From a phage, in the sequence record OZ346151.1: a DNA stretch of 64,000 bases; one strand, 5' to 3'. This document shows, piece after piece, positions 6,243 through 53,259 of this stretch. Below the pieces are notes generated by a model. The model searched no databases and was not told the origin of the DNA. It saw nothing but the letters and a program-made list of their open reading frames with translations. Each line of letters begins with the position of its first letter. Positions within the stretch are counted from its first letter, which is position 1. The position numbers were made by a program, and so were the translations under genes.

Positions 6243-6509
6243 ATGAAACTAACTCAGTTTTTATGGGGACTGGTTGCGGAATCTGATGACCCTACGAAAG
6301 TATCCCAATCTAAGCTATGGTCGAACATAGGCATGGTGGTGATGACTGGGGTGTTTATTCATATGGGGTATAATGATACGCTTCCTGAATGGTATGCGTG
6401 GATATATGCACCTTCAGTAGCCTGCCCCCAGCTTATTAGCAAATTCATCTCGCTCCGGTGGGGTTGCCAGCACCCTGACCACGTTAAAAACGAAGAGCAA
6501 AAAGCTTAA
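6243..6509 (+). CDS. hypothetical small protein downstream of fibre paralogue 2 (88 aa)
   Basis: AGAGGG RBS and ATG; position analogous to 4190..4774. Confidence 0.4.
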   Translation: MKLTQFLWGLVAESDDPTKVSQSKLWSNIGMVVMTGVFIHMGYNDTLPEWYAWIYAPSVACPQLISKFISLRWGCQHPDHVKNEEQKA

Positions 6510-6518
6510 GGAGAAATC

Positions 6519-8264
6519 ATGGCGCAAGACATGACAAGCTTCGAGCAGGCGGTAGATCAAGTAATTGTTGATTCTGAACGTTTGCACTTGATTGTCAACG
6601 GTAACGCTGTGGATGAAGTTGTCGTAGAGGATGGGACCACTATCCCTACGGTACGAAAAGCCATGCTTGACACCCTTTATTTTAAAACGCCACCAATCCC
6701 TTGGGCGTATGGTGCATCCACAACAGTTTTTAACCAGTTGTATGAGTTTAAAGGGGATACAGGCACTCAGTGGTGGTACGCCCCAGCAGCATCAAAATCT
6801 AACCCGGTTAGAATGCCAGCAGATCCTTCACAATCTCCAAACTGGAGATTATACACCGACTCTGCAGTAATGGCAAAATACTACGCAAAACTTAACAGCC
6901 CAAGGTTCGAAGGTGACCCGCGAGTACCTACACCTCCAATGGACGATAAGTCAGAGTCCATAGCAAACACAGAGTTTGTTGTTGACTATGTTGATAGCAT
7001 ATTTAAAGCCATGGAGGGGATGAAAGTTACTGTAGGATCTTTGGTGGTAAAAGGTCTTACAGAACTCGCTAACACTATAGTTGGTGGCACCCTTACCTTA
7101 CATGGACCTGTTAATGGGGCAGATTCTACTGCACGCTTTAGGAATCTAATCCTCACGGCAAATACTTCTACACTTACTTTTGCGTGGAGCGATCCTAAGC
7201 ATGCAGACTGGAGAAGTACAGAGCTGCAACCTCATGAAGTGTCCACCCACAGGGTTATAGCTGACACTATAACTTCTGGGAAACCAGTGGCTAATAATAA
7301 CGATGTGCATTTTGATGGTCTGGGTAATAACTTTTTTGACTACGTGTACATTCGTGGTAATGCCATGAAGGCAGCAACCGAACCGACATTGCAGGTAGAT
7401 GGGACCACCAGGGTTAAGAACCTTGAGGTGACAGGTACCGTTACAGGGATAACATACTCTGTCGATGGCACCATGATCTACCCTAGCTATATTGAAAGCA
7501 CTGGTGATGCATTGATAAATGGCGATTTGGAGGTTGGCGGGTCTGTAGTTATTCGAGGTACGGCCTCTATCCAAAACATAGCTCTGAATACCTTAAGAGT
7601 CAATGAGCGTGCAACTTTTGAAGGAGAAGGGCTTACAGCCAACAAAGGTGTAATTACCGAGCTGACAACAACCACTTTAACTGCAACAGCTGCAAACTCT
7701 GAAAACTGCAACGTTACCCGCAACTTGCAGGTAAATGGAGATGTCAGTTTAAACGCAGCAGGGCCTGGCACCACCTCTGTTCACAACCTTGAAATATCCG
7801 GCACGGTGACTGGGTGGTTGCCTGACTTCTCTAATGTCACCTTTGTCTGTAATGGCATTAACTCCAGTGGCAAGATAACCACCTCTCAAGAAATTGAGGC
7901 GGGTAAAACCATTACTGCCCCTACTTTCCACGCAGGAAAGGTAGATTTTGATTTAGAGGAGGTTGACGCGTCCAGTGGGACATGGACACCTAACGGGCAG
8001 GCCAGTATGTATGTTGTTCACGCGAAAGGGGATTTTACAATAGGACAGTGGCCTGGGACATCAGCGGAAGATAAACCTTATCCATTCACTGCGGTTATCT
8101 ATGTAATTCAGGATGCTGTAGGTCACAACGTGACTTTGCACGATAAGTATGCTATCCTGTCGGCAACACCTGTTATTAACAACAAGGCTAACAGTGTTAC
8201 CTTGCTGCAATTAACGTATTGTGGTGTTGGTGATATCGTAGACGTAGTAATTGCACAACGTTAA
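6519..8264 (+). CDS. tail fibre protein with conserved side-tail-fibre collar motif (581 aa)
   Basis: AAGGAG RBS; contains NSPRFEGDPRVPTPPMDDKSESIANTEFV, matching the conserved G-x-P-x-APTP...IATTAFV region of lambda Stf, P2 H and Mu S type fibres; Thr/Gly/Asn-rich C-terminal part. Confidence 0.65.
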   Translation: MAQDMTSFEQAVDQVIVDSERLHLIVNGNAVDEVVVEDGTTIPTVRKAMLDTLYFKTPPIPWAYGASTTVFNQLYEFKGDTGTQWWYAPAASKSNPVRMPADPSQSPNWRLYTDSAVMAKYYAKLNSPRFEGDPRVPTPPMDDKSESIANTEFVVDYVDSIFKAMEGMKVTVGSLVVKGLTELANTIVGGTLTLHGPVNGADSTARFRNLILTANTSTLTFAWSDPKHADWRSTELQPHEVSTHRVIADTITSGKPVANNNDVHFDGLGNNFFDYVYIRGNAMKAATEPTLQVDGTTRVKNLEVTGTVTGITYSVDGTMIYPSYIESTGDALINGDLEVGGSVVIRGTASIQNIALNTLRVNERATFEGEGLTANKGVITELTTTTLTATAANSENCNVTRNLQVNGDVSLNAAGPGTTSVHNLEISGTVTGWLPDFSNVTFVCNGINSSGKITTSQEIEAGKTITAPTFHAGKVDFDLEEVDASSGTWTPNGQASMYVVHAKGDFTIGQWPGTSAEDKPYPFTAVIYVIQDAVGHNVTLHDKYAILSATPVINNKANSVTLLQLTYCGVGDIVDVVIAQR

Positions 8265-44776: not shown

Positions 44777-45102
44777 CAGAGATCATCATTTCAACTGCAG
44801 GGTATGTATTCCTGACAATCATTGCACTGGCTATTTTGGTGACAGTGTATGGGTTTGTTATCCTTCCTATCCTTGAGACATTTAGTTTGTGTCGGTGTTG
44901 GAGAAAAGCTTACGGTCCACAACCATGGAAGGACTGGCCCCACCTGGTGCGCTTAGCGTTCTCTTATGCTTACGATCACTCCAGTAGTGCATGCATAACC
45001 GGATACCACGCCCACAACTGGAGCTGGGAAGGGTTGAGGAAATGGAATGTTACAAAGACCATACCTCTGCGCATGTACAAACCTAAAAACAAAGACAACT
45101 GA
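44773..45102 (+). CDS. membrane protein (109 aa)
   Basis: GGGGAGG RBS; N-terminal hydrophobic helix IISTAGYVFLTIIALAILVTVYGFVILPIL. Confidence 0.45.
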   Translation: MTEIIISTAGYVFLTIIALAILVTVYGFVILPILETFSLCRCWRKAYGPQPWKDWPHLVRLAFSYAYDHSSSACITGYHAHNWSWEGLRKWNVTKTIPLRMYKPKNKDN

Positions 45103-45410
45103 TACTTGAAAATTCCTGGCATATCAAGTATAAGGGGGATTTCTAAAATGGATTTCCTCCTTTTGATATTTCACCGGGCTGGATATTTTAAAATTCTTAG
45201 AAAATCAGAAAATGGATCGAAAACTAAAATGGATTTTTCAGAGTAGGCGCGACAAGCTGAATAACTCATCCTATCGTTTGCACCATATTCCAGGCCACCA
45301 TTATAGATTTCCCACACATGCTAACCTCTCCCTACTAGAACTTCCTCCACTTACCCTTGACCTTCTATGGTAACAATCTAACCGCTATCTTGAAGTTGCG
45401 GTGCAGCTTT

Positions 45411-45600
45411 CCAGGTACTCGATCTACTTTTCATTTCAGGGCTTGGATTTTCTGAAAATTTTTCTCGATAAATTTCTCAGTACTCGATCTGTTTTTCGTT
45501 TTCTGAATCGGATTTTCTGGAAATCGTTCCGGCTCTCAACCTGAAATTTTTGGGGACGAAATCGATTTTTCGTTTTCAGAAATGGATTTTTAAAATTTCT
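45411..45600. repeat. iteron-like imperfect tandem direct repeats (about 64-bp unit, 2 full copies plus a partial one)
   Basis: CAGGTACTCGATCTACTTTTCATTTCAGG...GGATTTTCTGAAAAT recurs as CAGTACTCGATCTGTTTTTCGTTTTCTG...GGATTTTCTGGAAAT, then a partial CGATTTTTCGTTTTCAG...GGATTTTTAAAAT. Confidence 0.5.
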
Positions 45601-45705
45601 ATATGGGAATATTTTAGTGGATACTGTTTTATAGGAAATTGTTACGGAGGGTAATTAGCATGCTAATTAAATTTATTAAATGCGAGGAGTTCTCATTTAG
45701 AATTT

Positions 45706-45930
45706 TGAATGATAATCATTCTCGTTTGCAGAATAACGGGCAGGCCCGGTGATTGTCTCCCGGCCCCTGTTGCCCCGGCTTGTTATTATAGTATCACACA
45801 GGACAAAGAAAGCAAGGACTTTTTGCATAAATTTTTAAATGATAATGATAACCGTTCTCATTTTATGCAGCGCCCATCCCCGGTGGTTGTCTCCCCCGTC
45901 ACCGGTGCCTGCCGTCCTTTCGATATGTAT
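45706..45930. repeat. pair of about 85-bp imperfect direct repeats in non-coding DNA
   Basis: GATAATCATTCTCGTTTGCAG...CCCGGTGATTGTCTCCCGGCCCC recurs about 130 bp downstream as GATAACCGTTCTCATTTTATGCAG...CCCGGTGGTTGTCTCCCCCGTC. Confidence 0.4.
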
Positions 45931-46286
45931 ATTGTGCCACCTGGCGGGGCCGCTGTCAACACTTTTCAAAAAATTTTTCTAACCTGGTGCGCTAACCGTT
46001 GCAACCTGGCGGGGCCAGCCTGGCAGGACCTAACTGACCAGGTAGGGGAGAATGAAGGCTTGTAAACCTGGTGGGCCTATGCTACAGGATAGGTAACAAT
46101 TGAAGAGGAGGTACAAAAATGATATGATCCCCCTGGAAAATGTAGCTATTAATGACTCTGAGGCTATCGCCCTGGTTGAAAAGGCTATGGCGGGAGCGTT
46201 GGAACATAAAGAAGAGTACGAAAATGGTGGTTAACCTGGCGGGGGCGGCAGGTGGATTCTATCATAAAAATAATTTAAAATAGTAG

Positions 46287-46314
46287 TTGACAACAAGGTT
46301 AATCATGGTATTAT
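46287..46314 (+). promoter_or_regulatory. sigma70-like promoter (TTGACA-16-TATTAT)
   Basis: Consensus -35 with good -10, upstream of the 46365 gene. Confidence 0.5.
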
Positions 46315-46364
46315 TACCCTACAAGGTGAACAACACCGCACTAACCAGTAAAGAGGATAAATTT

Positions 46365-46562
46365 ATGAACGCATACGGGATCAAAGTACGTCGCAACACT
46401 CGCCAGGTGGTCACCAATCAAGTGATTTGCCGGGTGGATGTAACCATCAACAACGGGCAAGGCCTTTATAAATTTCGTCGCGGTCATAGCTATACCCTGC
46501 AACAGCTTAATCGTTGCGCCCTGACAAAAGGTCAGATCAACCACTGGTTTAATAAAAAATAA
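46365..46562 (+). CDS. small basic hypothetical protein (about 65 aa)
   Basis: ATG after AGAGGATAAA; first of a run of small rightward genes. Confidence 0.45.
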   Translation: MNAYGIKVRRNTRQVVTNQVICRVDVTINNGQGLYKFRRGHSYTLQQLNRCALTKGQINHWFNKK

Positions 46563-46565
46563 GTA

Positions 46566-46594
46566 TTGACATACAGTCAGACACCAAATACACT
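46566..46594 (+). promoter_or_regulatory. sigma70-like promoter (TTGACA-17-TACACT)
   Basis: Consensus -35 and TAnnnT -10 upstream of the 46627 gene. Confidence 0.45.
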
Positions 46595-46626
46595 AAAAGC
46601 ACAAAAGACACTAAGAGGATAAAATC

Positions 46627-46812
46627 ATGAAAACCACTACCTTTAATTTTGATAATGCAGACTTTTCTTTTTCTGATGTCAAGAACTGCCGCCGTGATCG
46701 TGGATTTTACAAGGCTTATAATCTGGTGGGCCTGGACGATGACAATAATTTGCACGAAGTAGCTGAGATCCAGCTTGACAGATTGGACGGGAAAGTACTA
46801 AAAACTTATTGA
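46627..46812 (+). CDS. hypothetical protein (61 aa)
   Basis: AAGAGGATAAAATC then ATG. Confidence 0.45.
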   Translation: MKTTTFNFDNADFSFSDVKNCRRDRGFYKAYNLVGLDDDNNLHEVAEIQLDRLDGKVLKTY

Positions 46813-46814
46813 GT

Positions 46815-46860
46815 TTATTTTTAGATGGCCTTGACACCAGGGCCATCAATAAAGTAAACT
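46815..46860 (+). promoter_or_regulatory. 46-bp palindrome-containing promoter element, copy 1
   Basis: TTATTTTTAGATGGCCTTGACACCAGGGCCATCAATAAAGTAAACT; TTGACA sits in the loop of a GATGGCC/GGCCATC inverted repeat. Confidence 0.5.
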
Positions 46861-47012
46861 AACCACAGTTGAGCGGAAAAGGAGGCTTAAAGATGAGCAC
46901 TACACGCCAGCACACAAAGGTAACCATCATCGTTTGCATCATTGGGTACATCCTGGCGCAAATGTTGATGGGTAGCGCCAACGGTGTCGCAAAATTTTTC
47001 TTAAACTTTTAA

Positions 47013-47040
47013 TTGACAAGCTAACTTAAATCGATATAAT
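47013..47040 (+). promoter_or_regulatory. sigma70 promoter (TTGACA-16-TATAAT)
   Basis: Perfect consensus hexamers upstream of the 47092 gene. Confidence 0.55.
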
Positions 47041-47091
47041 AAGCACATAAACGGGAAAACTTCCCAGAACACACAAAAGGAGAAAAACACC

Positions 47092-47433
47092 ATGACTACT
47101 ATGACCGCCTCAGAAAAAGCTATGCAGATCGCTGAACTGAAAAAACAGATCGCAGACCTTGAGAATAAGATCGATAACTTTGAAATCGACGAGGACAAGT
47201 ACGACGAAAACTATGATGAATGGTTAGACGAGATCTACGGCGAAATTATGATCGGAAACATTTCTTTTCTTCCGTCGCGTATCCTCAAGGAGCTAGATCC
47301 TATCGCTTACCGCTGCGGATTTAGCGACTACATCGACAGCCTGGATATTGAGGACGATGAAGAATACCAGGAATTACAGACAGAGTTAGAAGAAGCAAAA
47401 GAAGAGCTTGCGGAGCTGGAAGAAAACGAGTAA
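47092..47433 (+). CDS. highly acidic coiled-coil protein (113 aa)
   Basis: AAAGGAGAAAAACACC then ATG; E/D-rich heptad-like sequence. Confidence 0.5.
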   Translation: MTTMTASEKAMQIAELKKQIADLENKIDNFEIDEDKYDENYDEWLDEIYGEIMIGNISFLPSRILKELDPIAYRCGFSDYIDSLDIEDDEEYQELQTELEEAKEELAELEENE

Positions 47434-47435
47434 GC

Positions 47436-47481
47436 TTATTTTTAGATGGCCTTGACACCAGGGCCATCAATAAAGTAAACT
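47436..47481 (+). promoter_or_regulatory. 46-bp palindrome-containing promoter element, copy 2 (identical to copy 1)
   Basis: Exact repeat of the 46815 element immediately after the stop of the preceding gene. Confidence 0.5.
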
Positions 47482-47522
47482 TTATACTGTTAACACTGAA
47501 CTAATGCATAGGAGTTAAAACC

Positions 47523-47768
47523 ATGGCAGCACTAATCACCAAATATTATGCCCCTACCAACACCAAAAGCGCCCGTATCATGGTAAAAGGCTTCGGACGT
47601 AAAAAGGTGTACACCTGGGATTATGCCTTAGACACGGAAGACAACTACACCAACGCAATGACCGATTTTATTAATGAACTAAATAAGCAGATCTTGACAA
47701 GTTATAAAGTGACCGATATTGCTTATATAGGTGAAGGCGGGATCTGTTTTGTAGGCATTGTGAAATAG
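47523..47768 (+). CDS. hypothetical protein (81 aa)
   Basis: TAGGAGTTAAAACC then ATG (same 20-nt RBS/start context as the 51767 gene). Confidence 0.45.
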   Translation: MAALITKYYAPTNTKSARIMVKGFGRKKVYTWDYALDTEDNYTNAMTDFINELNKQILTSYKVTDIAYIGEGGICFVGIVK

Positions 47769-47815
47769 TTATTTTTTCGGTGGTCCTGGTTGCAGGGCCA
47801 TCTATAAAGATAATT
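47768..47815 (+). promoter_or_regulatory. diverged variant of the palindromic promoter element
   Basis: GGTCCTGGTTGCAGGGCCATCTATAAAGATAAT: same architecture with GTTGCA in place of TTGACA. Confidence 0.35.
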
Positions 47816-47842
47816 TATTAACACCATGAAAGGAGAAAGTAC

Positions 47843-48196
47843 ATGATCAGCGGGGCAAGTTTTATTATTGGCGCTATTGCTACGGCTTTAATTGTAAATA
47901 AGATCCAGGATAAAAAGGAAAGAGGAAGTACCGCCCTTGCAGAATATCCATTTTGGGCATTCAACGATAACGAAGATTATATTATAAAGTATAAAAATAA
48001 AGAAGGTGACCAAGTAACACCGCGACCGATCCCGGCTTACAAAATGCAGGAAACACTATACCGCCTGGAGGCGGGTGGCGCAAAAATTGTAGACTTTTGG
48101 GGATACGACCACACAGATCAGGAAGTTATAAAGCGCCGTATCCGGGCTATTCAGGCCAATATTGAAGTTAGCAAGGGGGGAATATATGAAAATTAA
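47843..48196 (+). CDS. membrane-anchored hypothetical protein (117 aa)
   Basis: AAAGGAGAAAG RBS; N-terminal hydrophobic helix ISGASFIIGAIATALIV. Confidence 0.45.
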   Translation: MISGASFIIGAIATALIVNKIQDKKERGSTALAEYPFWAFNDNEDYIIKYKNKEGDQVTPRPIPAYKMQETLYRLEAGGAKIVDFWGYDHTDQEVIKRRIRAIQANIEVSKGGIYEN

Positions 48197-48383
48197 TTTC
48201 GAGAAAATTGTAAAGCGCCCTCATGATTCCGAAGAGCTGCCAGAACGCCGCCAGCGTAACAATAAACTGAATAAGCCAAAAAGGTTTGGGAAGATCTGGC
48301 GTAATCATTATGATCGTAAATTGCCCGGCCTACTTTTGGAACGTGAACGACAGGCAGAACGATACCGCCATAAAGACAAATAA
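48186..48383 (+). CDS. small highly basic protein (about 65 aa)
   Basis: ATG after AAGGGGGG; Arg/Lys-rich. Confidence 0.4.
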   Translation: MKINFEKIVKRPHDSEELPERRQRNNKLNKPKRFGKIWRNHYDRKLPGLLLERERQAERYRHKDK

Positions 48384-48391
48384 CAACCAAC

Positions 48392-48420
48392 GCCCCGCCA
48401 TTGTGCGGGGCTTTTTATTT
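48392..48420 (+). terminator. rho-independent terminator
   Basis: GCCCCGC-cattgt-GCGGGGC hairpin followed by TTTTTATTT. Confidence 0.65.
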
Positions 48421-48540
48421 CTATCCTACGAATAGCGCCCCTGGTTGGCCCTGTAAGCGCCAAAAAGGCCCCCACCTATGCAATCGCCCCTTTAACCTGA
48501 AAACATCGCCCAGGGCCGTTTCATGGCGTTAAAAATATCA

Positions 48541-48568
48541 TTGACATCGTCAACAGGTTAGCTATACT
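48541..48568 (+). promoter_or_regulatory. sigma70-like promoter (TTGACA-16-TATACT)
   Basis: Near-consensus hexamers upstream of the 48601 gene. Confidence 0.5.
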
Positions 48569-48600
48569 AACCACATCAAAGAGAGAAAGGAGTAAACGCC

Positions 48601-48861
48601 ATGCGTAAATTAAAAAATTTTGATAAAGTTGATGTTATCCTGAATAATTTTTACTACTGCAACAACAAGGCTATTTGGTGGCGTGATAGTTCCACCGATA
48701 AAGTCAGGGCGCGCTTTCTTCAGGGGCACTGGCAAGGCCGCCCAGTGATTAAAATCATGGGGCAATCGGTAGCGTTTAAAAATTGCCGCCGTGTTGATGA
48801 CGTTGAGGAGATTTTAAACATTTTGCGCCACAATAATTTAAAAAATAGTGTTGACAAGTAA
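48601..48861 (+). CDS. hypothetical protein (86 aa)
   Basis: AAAGGAGTAAACGCC then ATG. Confidence 0.45.
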   Translation: MRKLKNFDKVDVILNNFYYCNNKAIWWRDSSTDKVRARFLQGHWQGRPVIKIMGQSVAFKNCRRVDDVEEILNILRHNNLKNSVDK

Positions 48862-48878
48862 GCCTCAATAAGTATACT
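48851..48878 (+). promoter_or_regulatory. sigma70-like promoter (TTGACA-16-TATACT) overlapping the 3' end of the preceding gene
   Basis: Same hexamer pair as the 48541 promoter. Confidence 0.45.
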
Positions 48879-48935
48879 TAAACACACAGGCGGGAAAACT
48901 TCCCGCCACTAACAAAGAAAATAGGAGAAAATATC

Positions 48936-49559
48936 ATGACCACCGTTAACATTACCGCAGGTTACAATTTATCTTTCGACGTGCTGACCGACGAACAAAA
49001 AGAAAAAGCCGTTGAAATGGTCCGCGAAAGAGAAGAACACAGCGGGGATAACTTTTTTGCAGAAAGTGTAATTGAATACTATAAAGAATATGTTTTTCCA
49101 GAGTATGGCCTTGAAGATACCGAAGTACATTGGTCAGGCTTTTGGTGCCAGGGTGACGGCGCGTCAATCAGTGCTGAAAACGTGGATTTAGAAAAATTTT
49201 TACGTAAAGTAAAGGCCCTGACCAAGTTCCGATCAATTCGTCACTTGTTCGGCACAATGCACGATGGCGAGTTATCAGCCAGTGTTGAACGCGACAAGTA
49301 CAGCCATTACAGCCATGAAAACACTGTAAGCGGGTACATTGATACCACTTGGCTAGATCTGACCGCCAAACAAGAAAACAAAGTGGAAGACCTGGAAGAA
49401 CTGATCACCGAGACGGTACGGGAGCTATCCCGCAAGGTTTACGTAGACCTGGAGGAGGCCTATCTAGAACAGTTCACCGCAGAAAACCTGATCGGCCTTA
49501 TCGAGGCCAATGATTGGCGGTTTGATGTCGATGAATATGGTGAGATGACTTTTTCATAA
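48936..49559 (+). CDS. acidic hypothetical protein (207 aa)
   Basis: AATAGGAGAAAATATC then ATG; no confident family assignment. Confidence 0.5.
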   Translation: MTTVNITAGYNLSFDVLTDEQKEKAVEMVREREEHSGDNFFAESVIEYYKEYVFPEYGLEDTEVHWSGFWCQGDGASISAENVDLEKFLRKVKALTKFRSIRHLFGTMHDGELSASVERDKYSHYSHENTVSGYIDTTWLDLTAKQENKVEDLEELITETVRELSRKVYVDLEEAYLEQFTAENLIGLIEANDWRFDVDEYGEMTFS

Positions 49560-49567
49560 ATAAAGTG

Positions 49568-49595
49568 TTGCAATAACCTAAAAACCTGCTATATT
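49568..49595 (+). promoter_or_regulatory. sigma70-like promoter (TTGCAA-16-TATATT)
   Basis: Hexamers read directly upstream of the 49650 gene. Confidence 0.4.
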
Positions 49596-49649
49596 AAAAC
49601 TCAAGGGGGCAAGACGTTTGCCCCAACACAAAACAAAGAGGATAACATC

Positions 49650-50030
49650 ATGAAAAACACTACCAAGGCTATTGACACCGTTATGTTTAACCTGGTTACA
49701 TTCCGTGAAGATATGAAAGATCTTCCTCGTGAAACAGTGTGCGACCATATCGAAAACTATCGCAAACTAATCAAAGAGTTGCCTTTAAAACGTGATCAAT
49801 ATGCGGCTAACGCCATGCTTAATGCCATGATCAAAAAGATGATCCAGTGTGATTTAACCCTGGCCTATGATTATGCAGGCGGTCGTTTTGCAGTATACAA
49901 TCAGCCCGTGCCCGGTATGAGCACCACCGAAGAATTGCACGCGCTCAATCTAAAACAAGACGTGTGGGATAGTATGCCTCGCGTGGTGGTATGGGTAGAA
50001 AGCGGAAAGATTTACGGCGATAATTTTTAA
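49650..50030 (+). CDS. hypothetical protein (126 aa)
   Basis: AAGAGGATAACATC then ATG. Confidence 0.45.
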   Translation: MKNTTKAIDTVMFNLVTFREDMKDLPRETVCDHIENYRKLIKELPLKRDQYAANAMLNAMIKKMIQCDLTLAYDYAGGRFAVYNQPVPGMSTTEELHALNLKQDVWDSMPRVVVWVESGKIYGDNF

Positions 50031-50037
50031 TCAGGTA

Positions 50038-50067
50038 GCAGGCGGCATATTTGCCGCCTTATTGTTA
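50038..50067 (+). terminator. rho-independent terminator
   Basis: GGCGGCA-tattt-TGCCGCC hairpin followed by TTATTGTT. Confidence 0.55.
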
Positions 50068-50094
50068 ATCAGAACTGTAAAAGAGGTACATAGA

Positions 50095-50466
50095 ATGGAA
50101 TTTATTATTTTGGCTGTATTGGTTGCCTTGTTTAACGCCTGGATCGCTGGCAAGATGGGAAGATCCGCCTTTTTATGGTTTATTATATCTATTTTCCTGG
50201 GGGTGGTTGCAACTATTGTATTGGTTATCCTTGCAATTGTTGACAAGGGGAATAATAGAAAGGGTAAAGTATTTTCAGACCTGTACGACGCTCAAACGTT
50301 TGTCAACGCCTATTATAGTGATCTTCCAGTCTCCCTACGTTGCAGCCTTGCACAACAGGTTTTCGATGAAGCTAAAACCAGAGATCACGCCCATGAGATT
50401 TGTTTAACTGAGGCGGATCGCCTATTTGAGAGGAATAGAAAATATGTGGACCAGCCGTTTAAATAA
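50095..50466 (+). CDS. membrane protein with two predicted TM helices (about 123 aa)
   Basis: ATG after AAAGAGG; hydrophobic segments FIILAVLVALFNAWIAG and FLWFIISIFLGVVATIVLVILAIV. Confidence 0.45.
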   Translation: MEFIILAVLVALFNAWIAGKMGRSAFLWFIISIFLGVVATIVLVILAIVDKGNNRKGKVFSDLYDAQTFVNAYYSDLPVSLRCSLAQQVFDEAKTRDHAHEICLTEADRLFERNRKYVDQPFK

Positions 50467-50576
50467 TGCCACGTTAATTAACCCCTTTAGTAAAGATTTG
50501 AAGCCAGCCGCCTGGCGGGATGGATTCAATAACGAACGCTTTATTTTCAGGCCTGATCTTGAGGAATTTTATAACA

Positions 50577-50804
50577 ATGGATCGAACAACAGCGGAGATA
50601 ATTTTTCTTGTGGTGTGTGTCGTGATAGGACTCCTGGGGGCCATTGTAGATCGCGTCACTACTACCAGAAGGAAAGGGGAGACGATGACAACCAAGGATA
50701 AGCCCCGCACCGATAAGGTGCGCCGTGTTATGGTATGGCTTGAGATCATCGCCCTTGAAATATTGTTAGGCGTAGGGATGTATTTTATCTCTGTAAGTAA
50801 CTGA
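50577..50804 (+). CDS. small membrane protein with two TM helices (about 75 aa)
   Basis: ATG after GAGGAA; hydrophobic N- and C-terminal segments; preferred over the overlapping alternative frame 50426..50701. Confidence 0.4.
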   Translation: MDRTTAEIIFLVVCVVIGLLGAIVDRVTTTRRKGETMTTKDKPRTDKVRRVMVWLEIIALEILLGVGMYFISVSN

Positions 50805-50947
50805 TAACGGCCCCCGATCCCTGGGGGGCCTAACTTTTTTCAAAAAATTTTTCTTCCGGGGTGTTGCAATCCGGTCCTGAATATGGATAATAACAATCAA
50901 CGGGGAAACATCCCCACCAACACAAAAACCAGAAAGGAGAAACAAAA

Positions 50948-51148
50948 ATGAGCAACAATATCCGCGTTATTAACTTCAAAAAAGAAGAAAAAATTGCCGT
51001 GCTGATTGACGGTCAAGAAATCTTCAAGGGCGACTATGAAGATCATCAAACGGCGATTAGTATCACTCGCGTGATTGGTTACCATAATTTTTACCCCCAA
51101 GGCGCTGAGGCGGCGGTTAAACGAATCAAAGAGATTGTAGGCCTGTAA
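50948..51148 (+). CDS. hypothetical protein (66 aa)
   Basis: GAAAGGAGAAACAAAA then ATG. Confidence 0.45.
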   Translation: MSNNIRVINFKKEEKIAVLIDGQEIFKGDYEDHQTAISITRVIGYHNFYPQGAEAAVKRIKEIVGL

Positions 51149-51151
51149 AAT

Positions 51152-51197
51152 TTATTTTTAGATGGCCTTGACTCTAGGGCCATCAATAAAGTAAATT
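51152..51197 (+). promoter_or_regulatory. 46-bp palindrome-containing promoter element, copy 3
   Basis: TTTATTTTTAGATGGCCTTGACTCTAGGGCCATCAATAAAGTAAAT; a few substitutions relative to copies 1 and 2. Confidence 0.5.
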
Positions 51198-51241
51198 TAA
51201 ACCCTGTTAAAATACCACGCAGTTAACAAGGAGTAATGATC

Positions 51242-51541
51242 ATGTTTATCCAGGCTAATAATCTTTATTTCTTTGATGGTCAGATCGTAGATGGTGTGGA
51301 AGTGGAGATCACTGGGTGCCCTGGTGGTCAGGCTATGACTTTTCGGAATAATGCCTTTGATGATTCTCATATCGTTATGAGAATGGAAGTTACAAAGCTG
51401 GACGACAAGAAAACGCTCATTGACTATTCCGTGAAAGATCATCCAGACTACCACATGATCTATGGTGATTTGTGCATTGTTGACCGTGACAAGGTGGGCG
51501 GCATTGTGATCGCTATTGTGAACGATGTTTTCTCTGTATAG
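51242..51541 (+). CDS. hypothetical protein (about 99 aa)
   Basis: ATG after AAGGAG. Confidence 0.45.
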   Translation: MFIQANNLYFFDGQIVDGVEVEITGCPGGQAMTFRNNAFDDSHIVMRMEVTKLDDKKTLIDYSVKDHPDYHMIYGDLCIVDRDKVGGIVIAIVNDVFSV

Positions 51542-51766
51542 TTCCGGCAAATGATGCAAAATAAGGCCCCTAGCAGGGCCTACAGCGATATAATCACATA
51601 AAGGCCATGCAACCGCATGGCCTTTATTATTTTGGCGTTACAGCGGCCCCAAGGCGCTTAAAAATTTTTTAAAGAAGTACTTGCATCAAGCCCTACAATA
51701 TGGATAATAGGACGTGTCAGGGGGGGGAGGCCCCAATCATTAACCGGATAGATAGGAGTTAAAACC

Positions 51767-52051
51767 ATGGCTATTGTTACCGCTGGCGATGTAGTAGAAA
51801 TGGAAGCAAAATACTTAAAAGCGGGTATGCATATCCTACGCAACGATCTTGAACTGGTCCTGACAATGGTTGACTATAACCCAGGGCAAGATTATCCAAG
51901 TGTTGACTACTTTTTTGAGTATGTTGATGAAGAGTTGAAAGAGGATGAGGCCTATTGCGGTGAGTTCTGCAACTTCTTTTGTCCTGATGAGGTTGTAAAG
52001 GTTATCTATCAACCTGGCGTAGCTTTCCCGCTGCACGCTATCAATAAATAA
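51767..52051 (+). CDS. hypothetical acidic protein (94 aa)
   Basis: TAGGAGTTAAAACC then ATG. Confidence 0.45.
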   Translation: MAIVTAGDVVEMEAKYLKAGMHILRNDLELVLTMVDYNPGQDYPSVDYFFEYVDEELKEDEAYCGEFCNFFCPDEVVKVIYQPGVAFPLHAINK

Positions 52052-52055
52052 ACCT

Positions 52056-52080
52056 GGCGGGGGCCTTTTCGGCCCCCGCC
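52056..52080. terminator. strong GC hairpin, terminator candidate (weak T-tract on + strand)
   Basis: GGCGGGGGCC-tttt-GGCCCCCGCC perfect 10-bp stem; shares the AACCTGGCGGGG motif found four times in 45.9-46.3 kb. Confidence 0.35.
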
Positions 52081-52114
52081 TGAAATTATGAAAAATAAAA
52101 AGAGGCAAACTATC

Positions 52115-52348
52115 ATGATGGAACAAATTAAACGCGCTGAGGCTATTAATGGCAATGTAATCTATTTTGTCAGCAAAAACGAAAAAGGCGTACCCTATGC
52201 GGCGGTAATAGTACAGCCTGACGGCGATTATTGGTGCACTGTGTACGGCGCTTATTCTTTTGGGCGTCCAGTGCATGATAAAATTTTGAAAGTAGCGAAC
52301 CCTACCGGGAAAAATATTACAGCAGAAAAATTTTTTGAAAAAAGTTGA
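52115..52348 (+). CDS. hypothetical protein (about 77 aa)
   Basis: ATG after AAAGAGG. Confidence 0.45.
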   Translation: MMEQIKRAEAINGNVIYFVSKNEKGVPYAAVIVQPDGDYWCTVYGAYSFGRPVHDKILKVANPTGKNITAEKFFEKS

Positions 52349-52424
52349 CATGACCATATAAAACTGTAGTATATAAATCAAAGGGGGCAACAAGCCCCAC
52401 CAACCACAAAGAGGATAAAAAATC

Positions 52425-52604
52425 ATGGCTATTATTGCAAAGACCGAGATCGTAGGCTTAGATTCTATTCTCCTCGCATATGAGGAAGCTATAGAAATGT
52501 ATGTGGTTTCCTATGGTGAGTATATCCGTGAATATGAATCTATTGATCTAGCTTTTGAATGTTATATTCGCCAGGTTAATAAAGCGTACGATGATTATCG
52601 TTAA
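52425..52604 (+). CDS. small hypothetical protein (59 aa, below the ORF-track cutoff)
   Basis: AAGAGGATAAAAAATC then ATG; fits the spacing of the surrounding small-gene array; coordinates hand-counted. Confidence 0.35.
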   Translation: MAIIAKTEIVGLDSILLAYEEAIEMYVVSYGEYIREYESIDLAFECYIRQVNKAYDDYR

Positions 52605-52695
52605 AATAGTTTGACAACAAACAACCATCTAACAAAGCATAATACATAAGGTGGTAGAATGATCCGCCACCCGGAACAAAGAAGAGGTAAACACC

Positions 52696-52941
52696 ATGAA
52701 AAGCAATAAAGGTTATAACGGTTACAAAAACAAAACTCATTGGAATGTAAGCCTTTGGATTAATAACGATGAGTCATTGTACCGGTTGGCCCAAGGATTT
52801 ATTAACGCTAATGCTAATCGTAATGATGCGGCGCGGGATATGATGCTTTTTCTGGAGCTAACCGGACAAGATAAGACCCCGGACGGCTTCAAGTACAGCA
52901 CTACGGCGATCCGTGCCGCGATGGTTGGAATGAAACACTAA
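52696..52941 (+). CDS. hypothetical protein (81 aa)
   Basis: AGAAGAGGTAAACACC then ATG. Confidence 0.45.
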   Translation: MKSNKGYNGYKNKTHWNVSLWINNDESLYRLAQGFINANANRNDAARDMMLFLELTGQDKTPDGFKYSTTAIRAAMVGMKH

Positions 52942-53259
52942 AAGCACATAGCCGCCAGATCTCAGAATTTACGTACGCTCACCAGTCTATAGCCTGCTAA
53001 GTATTTATTCCAACCATAGAATAACGGAATAGTCAATACCTGCATAAAATAATTATTCGTGTAAACTGCATAACATAAATCGGCTAGGATGTCAACATTT
53101 TTCGTAAACAGCTCGAAATTATAACGGTGAGTTATAATAAACAGAGAAATCTTTAGTCGTCTAATGTTTACTGTACATTACTATACTGACTGGAATCATT
53201 AGATGACTAAGAGAAAGATAAGAAATCATTAACAATGCAATTGTTTTATTCGTAACAAT

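Follow-up and report, generated by a model that had tools for sequence, protein, structure and literature searches.

Repetitive extragenic palindromic (REP) elements are imperfect palindromes that lie just past stop codons inside operons, where they are thought to shield the upstream message from 3' exonucleases. In phage T7, the R1.1 site is an intercistronic sense-strand hairpin of the early polycistronic mRNA made by the host polymerase, and RNase III substrates of this kind comprise about two helical turns (~20 bp, with coaxial stacking allowed), internal loops confining the enzyme to a single bond and leaving a protective 3' hairpin (PMC1540722). A different kind of module is found in the T4-type phages RB49/phi1, T4/PST and KVP40/nt-1, whose promoter-early stem-loop (PeSL) cassettes are repeated, 50-70 bp long and intergenic (PMC2839356, PMC4122927). 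The subject here is a repeated hairpin element at four gene junctions in a 64,000-nucleotide stretch of phage DNA (record OZ346151.1, hereafter the window), an element that joins two of these known classes, the T7-type intercistronic processing or stabilising hairpins and the PeSL-type intergenic cassettes that shuffle genes. The window belongs to a Vequintavirus, an rV5-like myophage of Escherichia coli, its interval 46000-52000 being matched by 124 phage records at 80-99% identity. The structure of the element and the recombination between its copies are well supported; its biochemical role is what we infer from them.

The element contains a 45-nt string that is exact at 46815-46859 and 47436-47480 and recurs with 3 mismatches at 51152-51196, as an initial annotation of the window had reported, whereas dinucleotide-preserving shuffles give an expectation of 0.00 matches. 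A repeat finder delimits four 49-nt copies (Table 1), among them, at 71% identity to copy 1, the diverged copy that the annotation had placed near 47768. Run over the whole 64-kb window, a covariance model built from the family returned just these four copies, the next best match scoring 13.6 bits. The copies do stand right after stop codons and even overlap them, the first base of the element being the final base of the upstream stop codon in four of four copies. This overlap, the outer stem described below and the recombination between copies were all absent from the initial annotation.

As + strand RNA all four copies form a two-tier hairpin. The inner stem is 10 bp long and G/C-rich (GATGGCCTTG/CAGGGCCATC, also written GAUGGCCUUG with CAGGGCCAUC, one U.G pair) and is capped by a tetraloop. 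At its base is an asymmetric 2x3 internal loop (2 nt in the 5' arm, 3 nt in the 3' arm), beyond which the flanks TTTATTTTT and AAAGTAAAC pair as a further 10-bp stem, the A/U outer stem (AGUUUAUUUU with AAAGUAAACU, one U.G pair). The internal loop reads UA/AAU, or UC/UAU in the diverged copy, at every site in ungapped copies, and it is kept with altered size in three indel variants (2x2 in Alma, 2x4 in the metagenome contig L137). Where TTGACA had been assigned to the loop of a 7-bp palindrome, the fold gives a 10-bp inner stem and a 4-nt loop, so that the hexamer spans both, TTG forming the top of the stem and ACA or ACU lying in the loop, and the -10-like TAAACT makes up the outer stem's 3' arm. 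Minimum free energies (MFE) of the + strand (Table 1) correspond to z-scores of -5.3 to -7.8, and the reverse strand reaches just -17.2, -8.1 and -13.7 kcal/mol. RNAalifold, supplied with no structure, recovered both helices identically. A search with Rfam covariance models of both strands of 45000-53000, at E up to 1, gave no match at the element.

It is clear from the relatives that the hairpin exists, is specific to the + strand and is maintained by selection. The four sites are orthologous in each relative fetched (isim, A142, AlexBoehm, YN3, JES2013, naam, rV5, Murica, Alma and several metagenome contigs), and the ungapped alignment comprises 49 copies, 38 of them distinct, from 19 phage genomes and contigs. 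Standard pairs occupy 98.7% of the pair cells in the 38 distinct copies, as against 34-56% when the partner is shifted by 1-3 columns, and not one of 500 shuffles matched the observed pairing or covariation score. Double compensatory changes are present at four outer-stem pairs, including G-C/A-U between sites 1 and 3 and a UA/AU swap between the main and the diverged type, and within the diverged copy the intermediate steps can be followed, from U-A through U.G to C-G and from A-U through G.U to G-C. Four inner-stem pairs vary, each by a change on one side (A-U to G.U, C-G to U.G, U.G to C-G or U-A, G-C to G.U) that always leaves the bases paired. Because many of the retained pairs are G.U, the structure is strand-specific: 99.0% of pairs hold on the + strand and 87.0% on the - strand, the corresponding values for the diverged type are 100% and 78.3%, and the covariance model gives 69-80 bits for + and 32-44 for -. 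The clearly poorer pairing of the minus strand makes the sense RNA the most likely target of selection. Across nine genomes the inner stem is invariant at each site, while identity in the same genomes is 0.87-0.96 for the flanking coding DNA and 0.68-0.83 for the tetraloop. Changes that break a pair are confined to 6:52 and 7:51 of the outer stem, the pairs that follow its invariant outermost A-U inwards, and the copies that bear insertions (Alma copy 4, L164 copy 3 and L137 copy 1) retain the two-tier fold.

The element is interpreted here as a sense-strand intercistronic processing and/or 3'-protective hairpin of the T7 early-mRNA type, an interpretation to which a probability of about one half can be attached. 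The early cluster, with the hairpin module at four of its cistron junctions, would be transcribed by the host polymerase, and the junction RNA would fold into ~20 bp of coaxial helix. Host RNase III would bind this two-turn helix and make a single cut in the internal loop, and by the analogy with T7 R1.1 this cut is predicted 3 nt beyond the inner stem, on its 3' side. The inner hairpin would thereby remain on the upstream cistron as a protective 3' end and the downstream cistron would begin with an unstructured, A-rich 5' end, and with separate ends the two messages may differ in stability. A ribosome terminating at the embedded stop codon would open most of the outer stem, and because it must melt that stem the geometry suggests that the complete helix would form only while the stop codon is free. 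A simpler variant, in which the hairpin would act as a barrier to 3' exonucleases and RNase III would play no part, is equally compatible with the data. The suggestion of an RNA-processing hairpin in the initial annotation is upheld at the level of structure, in that pairing is on the sense strand and both stems are preserved by G.U and compensatory changes. If processing of this kind does occur, it would be the first evidence for post-transcriptional control of rV5-like early operons, and the exact positions are given in Table 1.

Table 1. Positions in the window of the four element copies and their parts, of sigma-70-like matches and of predicted cuts (MFE, minimum free energy; ORF, open reading frame), in order along the window by copy.
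Feature	Position	Strand	Details
Copy 1	46812-46860	+	MFE -25.1 kcal/mol, z -7.8; covariance model 79.9 bits (+), 41.8 bits (-)
Copy 1, outer stem	46812-46821 with 46851-46860		
Copy 1, internal loop	46822-46823 (5' side); 46848-46850 (3' side)		
Copy 1, inner stem	46824-46833 with 46838-46847		tetraloop ACAC, 46834-46837
Copy 1, context			61-aa ORF upstream (stop TGA 46810-46812); 39-aa ORF downstream, start 46893
Copy 2	47433-47481	+	MFE -21.1 kcal/mol; 78.8 bits; 45-nt core same as copy 1
Copy 2, inner stem	47445-47454 with 47459-47468		
Copy 2, context			113-aa ORF upstream (stop TAA 47431-47433); 81-aa ORF downstream at 47523
Copy 4 (diverged)	47767-47815	+	MFE -22.4 kcal/mol on +, -8.1 on -; 68.7 bits
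Copy 4, inner stem			GGUGGUCCUG/CAGGGCCAUC, two G.U pairs; loop GUUG; architecture as in the other copies
Copy 4, outer stem			compensatory UA/AU swap; no TTGACA in copy 4
Copy 4, context			81-aa ORF upstream (stop TAG 47766-47768); 117-aa ORF downstream at 47843
Copy 3	51149-51197	+	MFE -21.5 kcal/mol; 78.1 bits; loop ACUC
Copy 3, pair changes			loop-closing G-C to G.U; outer-stem G-C to A-U
Copy 3, context			66-aa ORF upstream (stop TAA 51146-51148); downstream ORF start 51236/51242
Sigma-70-like match, copy 1	46831-46860	+	TTGACA-18-TAAACT, 10/12
Sigma-70-like match, copy 2	47452-47481	+	TTGACA-18-TAAACT, 10/12
Sigma-70-like match, copy 3	51168-51197	+	TTGACT-18-TAAATT, 9/12
Predicted RNase III cuts	46850/46851, 47471/47472, 47805/47806, 51187/51188	+	predicted by mapping the geometry of PMC1540722 onto the folds

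The parallel with T7 can be followed pair by pair under the rules for reactivity: the cut lies 11 bp from the tetraloop, any tetraloop sequence is tolerated, the distal box consists of U-A plus U.G adjoining the closing pair and every tested substitution in it reduces reactivity, and the proximal box prefers G-C, A-U/U-A and A-U, followed by no G-C adjoining the cut (PMC1540722). The two-turn helix is present as 10 + 10 bp around the 2x3 loop in the four copies and in the relatives, and the internal loop fits by structure at every site in ungapped copies. Copies 1-3 have the distal box, with U-A at pair 9 and U.G at pair 8, and their middle-box pairs are of tolerated types; proximal-box position 2 is A-U and position 4 is an A.A mismatch, hence there is no G-C by the predicted scissile bond. 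The element thus resembles R1.1 in its place in an early polycistronic message, in its ~two helical turns broken by an asymmetric internal loop, in its 10-bp upper stem and tetraloop with U.G and U-A by the loop-closing pair, in the A-U at proximal position 2 and in the expected outcome, a 3' hairpin remaining on the upstream message. It differs in having no sequence homology to R1.1, in a lower stem that is pure A/U and starts within the stop codon, and in its carrier, an unrelated myovirus.

Several points weigh against processing or protection of the message as the function. The preferred pairs at proximal-box positions 1 and 3 are G-C and A-U, whereas the element has U-A and G-C, and at distal-box pair 8 the diverged copy 4 has C-G in place of U.G, with U-A in one relative. 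No relative is less than 83% identical, so that the covariation amounts to roughly a dozen independent events. Loop positions 1-2 (AC) are constant in the 30 distinct ungapped copies of copies 1-3, the sole exception being the insertion-bearing copy 1 of contig L137, which reads GAUAAC, and this constancy hints at an extra sequence constraint, perhaps imposed by a -35 hexamer or by contact with a protein. As an alternative to an RNA structure, the + strand might form the hairpin as single-stranded DNA. Literature searches found no Vequintavirus transcriptome, transcript-end or cleavage data.

The alternative that survives best is a composite, PeSL-like cassette, in which copies 1-3 would serve as sigma-70 early promoters for the downstream gene and the stem-loop would attenuate or insulate transcription arriving from upstream, hairpin and promoter being two functions of one module built from an A/T-rich upstream tract, TTGACA, an 18-bp spacer and TAAAYT. 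Such a composite element is plausible, but the promoter proposed in the initial annotation amounts to a consensus match, scored in copies 1-3 (Table 1) and missing from the diverged copy, and as an account of the element we hold it to be possible but rather unlikely. Speaking for it are the acceptance of TAAACT as the -10 of promoter P194 in the rV5 genome paper, the A/T-rich tract upstream of the element, the sigma-70 promoters borne by other junctions in the cluster, the constancy of TTGAC in the 30 distinct ungapped copies of copies 1-3, whose loops vary at positions 3-4, and the precedent of RB49/phi1, in which PeSL stem-loops often lie between or over the promoter boxes beside an A/T-rich tract (PMC2839356). 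Neither copy 4 nor L137 copy 1, however, conserves the hexamers. The former has no usable -35 and its -10-like bases drift (GATAAT, GATAGT, GACAGT) with compensating changes in the 5' arm; because these changes are matched, it is pairing and not hexamer identity that is conserved. The latter, from an 83%-identical relative, is the lone exception to TTGAC, reading TTGATA, and its insertions stretch the spacing to 20 bp, although the hairpin is kept at -22.6 kcal/mol. The 18-bp spacer is in any case suboptimal, the sites are not among the 33 promoters of the rV5 genome paper, and no leader hairpin follows downstream, unlike at the true promoters of this cluster.

The promoter scan shows what those true promoters look like: most junctions in the cluster carry a near-consensus sigma-70 promoter and then a G/C leader hairpin, and the element occupies the four junctions without such a promoter. 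The same arrangement constitutes a second repeated intergenic module, at 47013-47066, 48851-48907, 49568-49624 and 50864-50915, in which a near-consensus promoter (16-17-bp spacer) is followed after ~8 nt by a G/C hairpin in the 5' leader (GGGAAAACTTCCC or GGCGGGAA..TTCCCGCC), and the early region of phage phi92 (38297-46453) is filled with it. Like the element, these cassettes of this phage and of phi92 are repeated, at 75-90-bp junctions between small early genes, but their hairpin follows the promoter and lies in the 5' leader, whereas the hairpin of the element covers the -35 and -10 positions and has no copy in phi92. The second module looks more like a classical PeSL than the hairpin element does.

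The copies of ~49 bp are also direct DNA repeats that serve homologous recombination, and the cassettes between them have been deleted in natural relatives. In magaca and phiWec189 a single hybrid element is present, its left flank being that of copy 1 and its right flank that of copy 2, and the 120-bp and 342-bp genes with the promoter between them are lost; since the two phages differ in loop and flanks, the deletions are probably independent. The same reduced pattern appears in the BLAST tables for ime, ECP26 and ECP32. In 241Ecol014PP a chimera joins the 5' part of copy 2 to the 3' part of copy 4, with the crossover within the common ATAAAG, and a 246-bp gene is missing. The loop variants ACAC, ACTC, ACTT and ACGC are found at different sites across genomes, and copies 1 and 2 are frequently identical within one genome, which suggests gene conversion among copies. 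In rV5_ev146 copies 1 and 3 have been lost by rearrangements (at 6398-6660 and downstream of 8900) whose ends lie outside the element, so that not all insertions and deletions here are element-mediated. Deletions from element to element do account for part of the differences in gene content among near-identical Vequintavirus genomes, and they extend gene shuffling via repeated intergenic cassettes beyond the T4-like phages.

The likeness to PeSL cassettes is accordingly one of both form and behaviour, as the element is a repeated intergenic module beside small accessory or ORFan early genes in a variable region, combines an A/T-rich tract and sigma-70-like boxes with an adjacent or overlapping stable stem-loop, and recombines between copies to give whole-cassette insertions or deletions and chimeras, represented here by magaca, phiWec189 and 241Ecol014PP. 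Against this, there are four copies of the element and ~50 of PeSL per genome, the promoter part of the element is in one copy weak or absent and is under no visible constraint, its hairpin has no terminator tail, the phage is not T4-like, and neither mini-circles nor gains of cassettes were seen among the relatives compared, only losses.

The evidence of exchange between copies could be turned to a different account, in which the element would have no function of its own and would be either a relic of intergenic duplication or a tolerated, selfish palindromic repeat homogenised by gene conversion. The family is tiny, with four copies in 4.4 kb and in a single genus, and the occurrence of the same loop variants at different sites in different genomes fits such a history. 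Yet the stems are more conserved than the adjacent coding DNA and the loops less, compensatory and G.U-only changes are found in the copy diverged to 71% identity, placement relative to the stop codon is fixed at four of four sites, and the flanking genes are not paralogues of one another (blastp gave no match below E = 0.3), so that paralogy of these genes was also rejected as the source of the repeat. Absence of function is for these reasons improbable. A dedicated switch in place of a generic RNase III or stabilising signal, coupling termination of translation at the stop codon to expression of the next early gene, seems just as improbable; in one version a phage-encoded or phage-modified host factor would read the invariant stem, the loop AC and the internal loop, and in the other a sigma-70 promoter with its -35 at the tip of the hairpin would be toggled by the forming of a hairpin or cruciform.

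An intrinsic (rho-independent) terminator or attenuator closing the upstream transcript is very improbable and was rejected, in agreement with the initial annotation, which had already seen that no U-tract follows the stem. Such a function would suit a stable, G/C-rich hairpin immediately past a stop codon, and the Murica record NC_041871 has 45-bp 'terminator' features exactly over copies 4 and 3. However, neither stem is followed by a U-tract, the 3' flank being A-rich (AAUAAAGUAAAC), and the U-rich run lies upstream, the reverse of the terminator layout; the terminator scan omits the four sites yet detects the true terminators nearby at 48392 and 50809; and efficient termination would leave the downstream genes promoterless. 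For annotators this means that the label 'terminator' is unsuited to these hairpins. Least probable of all is a site acting in double-stranded DNA, whether an operator for a dimeric phage or host regulator, one of the readings offered in the initial annotation, or a cruciform, because the perfect 7-bp inverted repeat that overlaps the -35-like hexamer in three copies loses its dyad symmetry at 2/8 positions in the diverged copy, where RNA pairing is kept through G.U and the - strand holds only 78% of pairs, and because the internal loop keeps its asymmetric 2x3 form, positions 3-4 of the tetraloop are free to vary and the sites are only four, each within a transcribed junction.

The element is restricted to one genus as far as the databases searched extend. 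By blastn it is present in 121 phage records, all Vequintavirus; in each genome it is detected at about 3 places, to which the diverged copy is to be added. These records include 17 named 'Campylobacter phage' (MG0656xx), which by taxonomy are Vequintavirus and share ~95% identity with this E. coli phage; the one that was opened, MG065662 (A142), is marked UNVERIFIED, and the Campylobacter host labels are probably due to contamination or mislabelling. No match to the element was found by blastn in 5,426 complete E. coli genomes (20,395 records), and phi92, a large related coliphage whose early region is similar, has no copy. The metagenome scan recovered the full element solely in rV5-like contigs. 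In IMG/VR a specific 19-base pattern found nothing, and a loose pattern of 14 specified bases gave chance matches only, which were disregarded. Contig ends in public assemblies were not counted as evidence of RNA ends, as an exact repeat of 45 nt breaks assemblies anyway. Single occurrences of the 24-nt palindrome GATGGCCTTGNNNNCAGGGCCATC are found in 12 G/C-rich bacterial genomes (Pseudomonas, Halopseudomonas and Rhodospirillales), one per genome; the bacterial and metagenome matches to it have the 24-nt inner palindrome alone and no A/U outer stem, score 32-35 bits and were set aside as unrelated, the bacterial sequence being probably a conserved coding or REP-like one. With REP elements themselves the phage element shares the position of an imperfect palindrome just past a stop codon within an operon, but it is phage-encoded and two-tier, has another consensus and, as stated, is not matched in the E. 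coli genomes. The rV5 genome paper lists 33 sigma-70 promoters and 20 terminators and not this element, which is thus undescribed and, where annotated at all, wrongly annotated. As candidates for therapy and biocontrol the rV5-like phages are in wide use, and there has been essentially no study of how their early genes are regulated.

The neighbourhood of the element is a series of small early genes, all on the + strand and of functions not known, and the proteins encoded beside the copies are 39-117 aa long. Tblastn with two of these flanking proteins found their homologues dispersed over unrelated phages and gave no second lineage bearing the element. ORFs on the minus strand that begin within the element overlap + strand genes and were dismissed as mechanical. 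Over 46600-48400, phage naswa shows 99.9% identity to the window. The 61-aa ORF at 46627-46812, on the 5' side of copy 1, is an in-frame fusion of two genes, comprising the first ~48 codons of a 132-aa gene and the last ~13 codons of the 131-aa gene that follows it in relatives such as magaca; it originated in a deletion of ~685 bp at a 7-bp microhomology, and naswa is ~690 bp longer across this stretch, consistent with its having retained both full genes. A 65-aa gene at 48186-48383, just 5' of the terminator at 48392, is annotated as 'T7 gp1.1-like' in Murica and 241Ecol014PP. On the 5' side of the early genes, an apparently non-coding stretch at 45405-45590 holds three tandem-like copies of a T-rich repeat of 47-57 nt, spaced 65-74 nt, and within it a long imperfect hairpin lies at 45546-45583.

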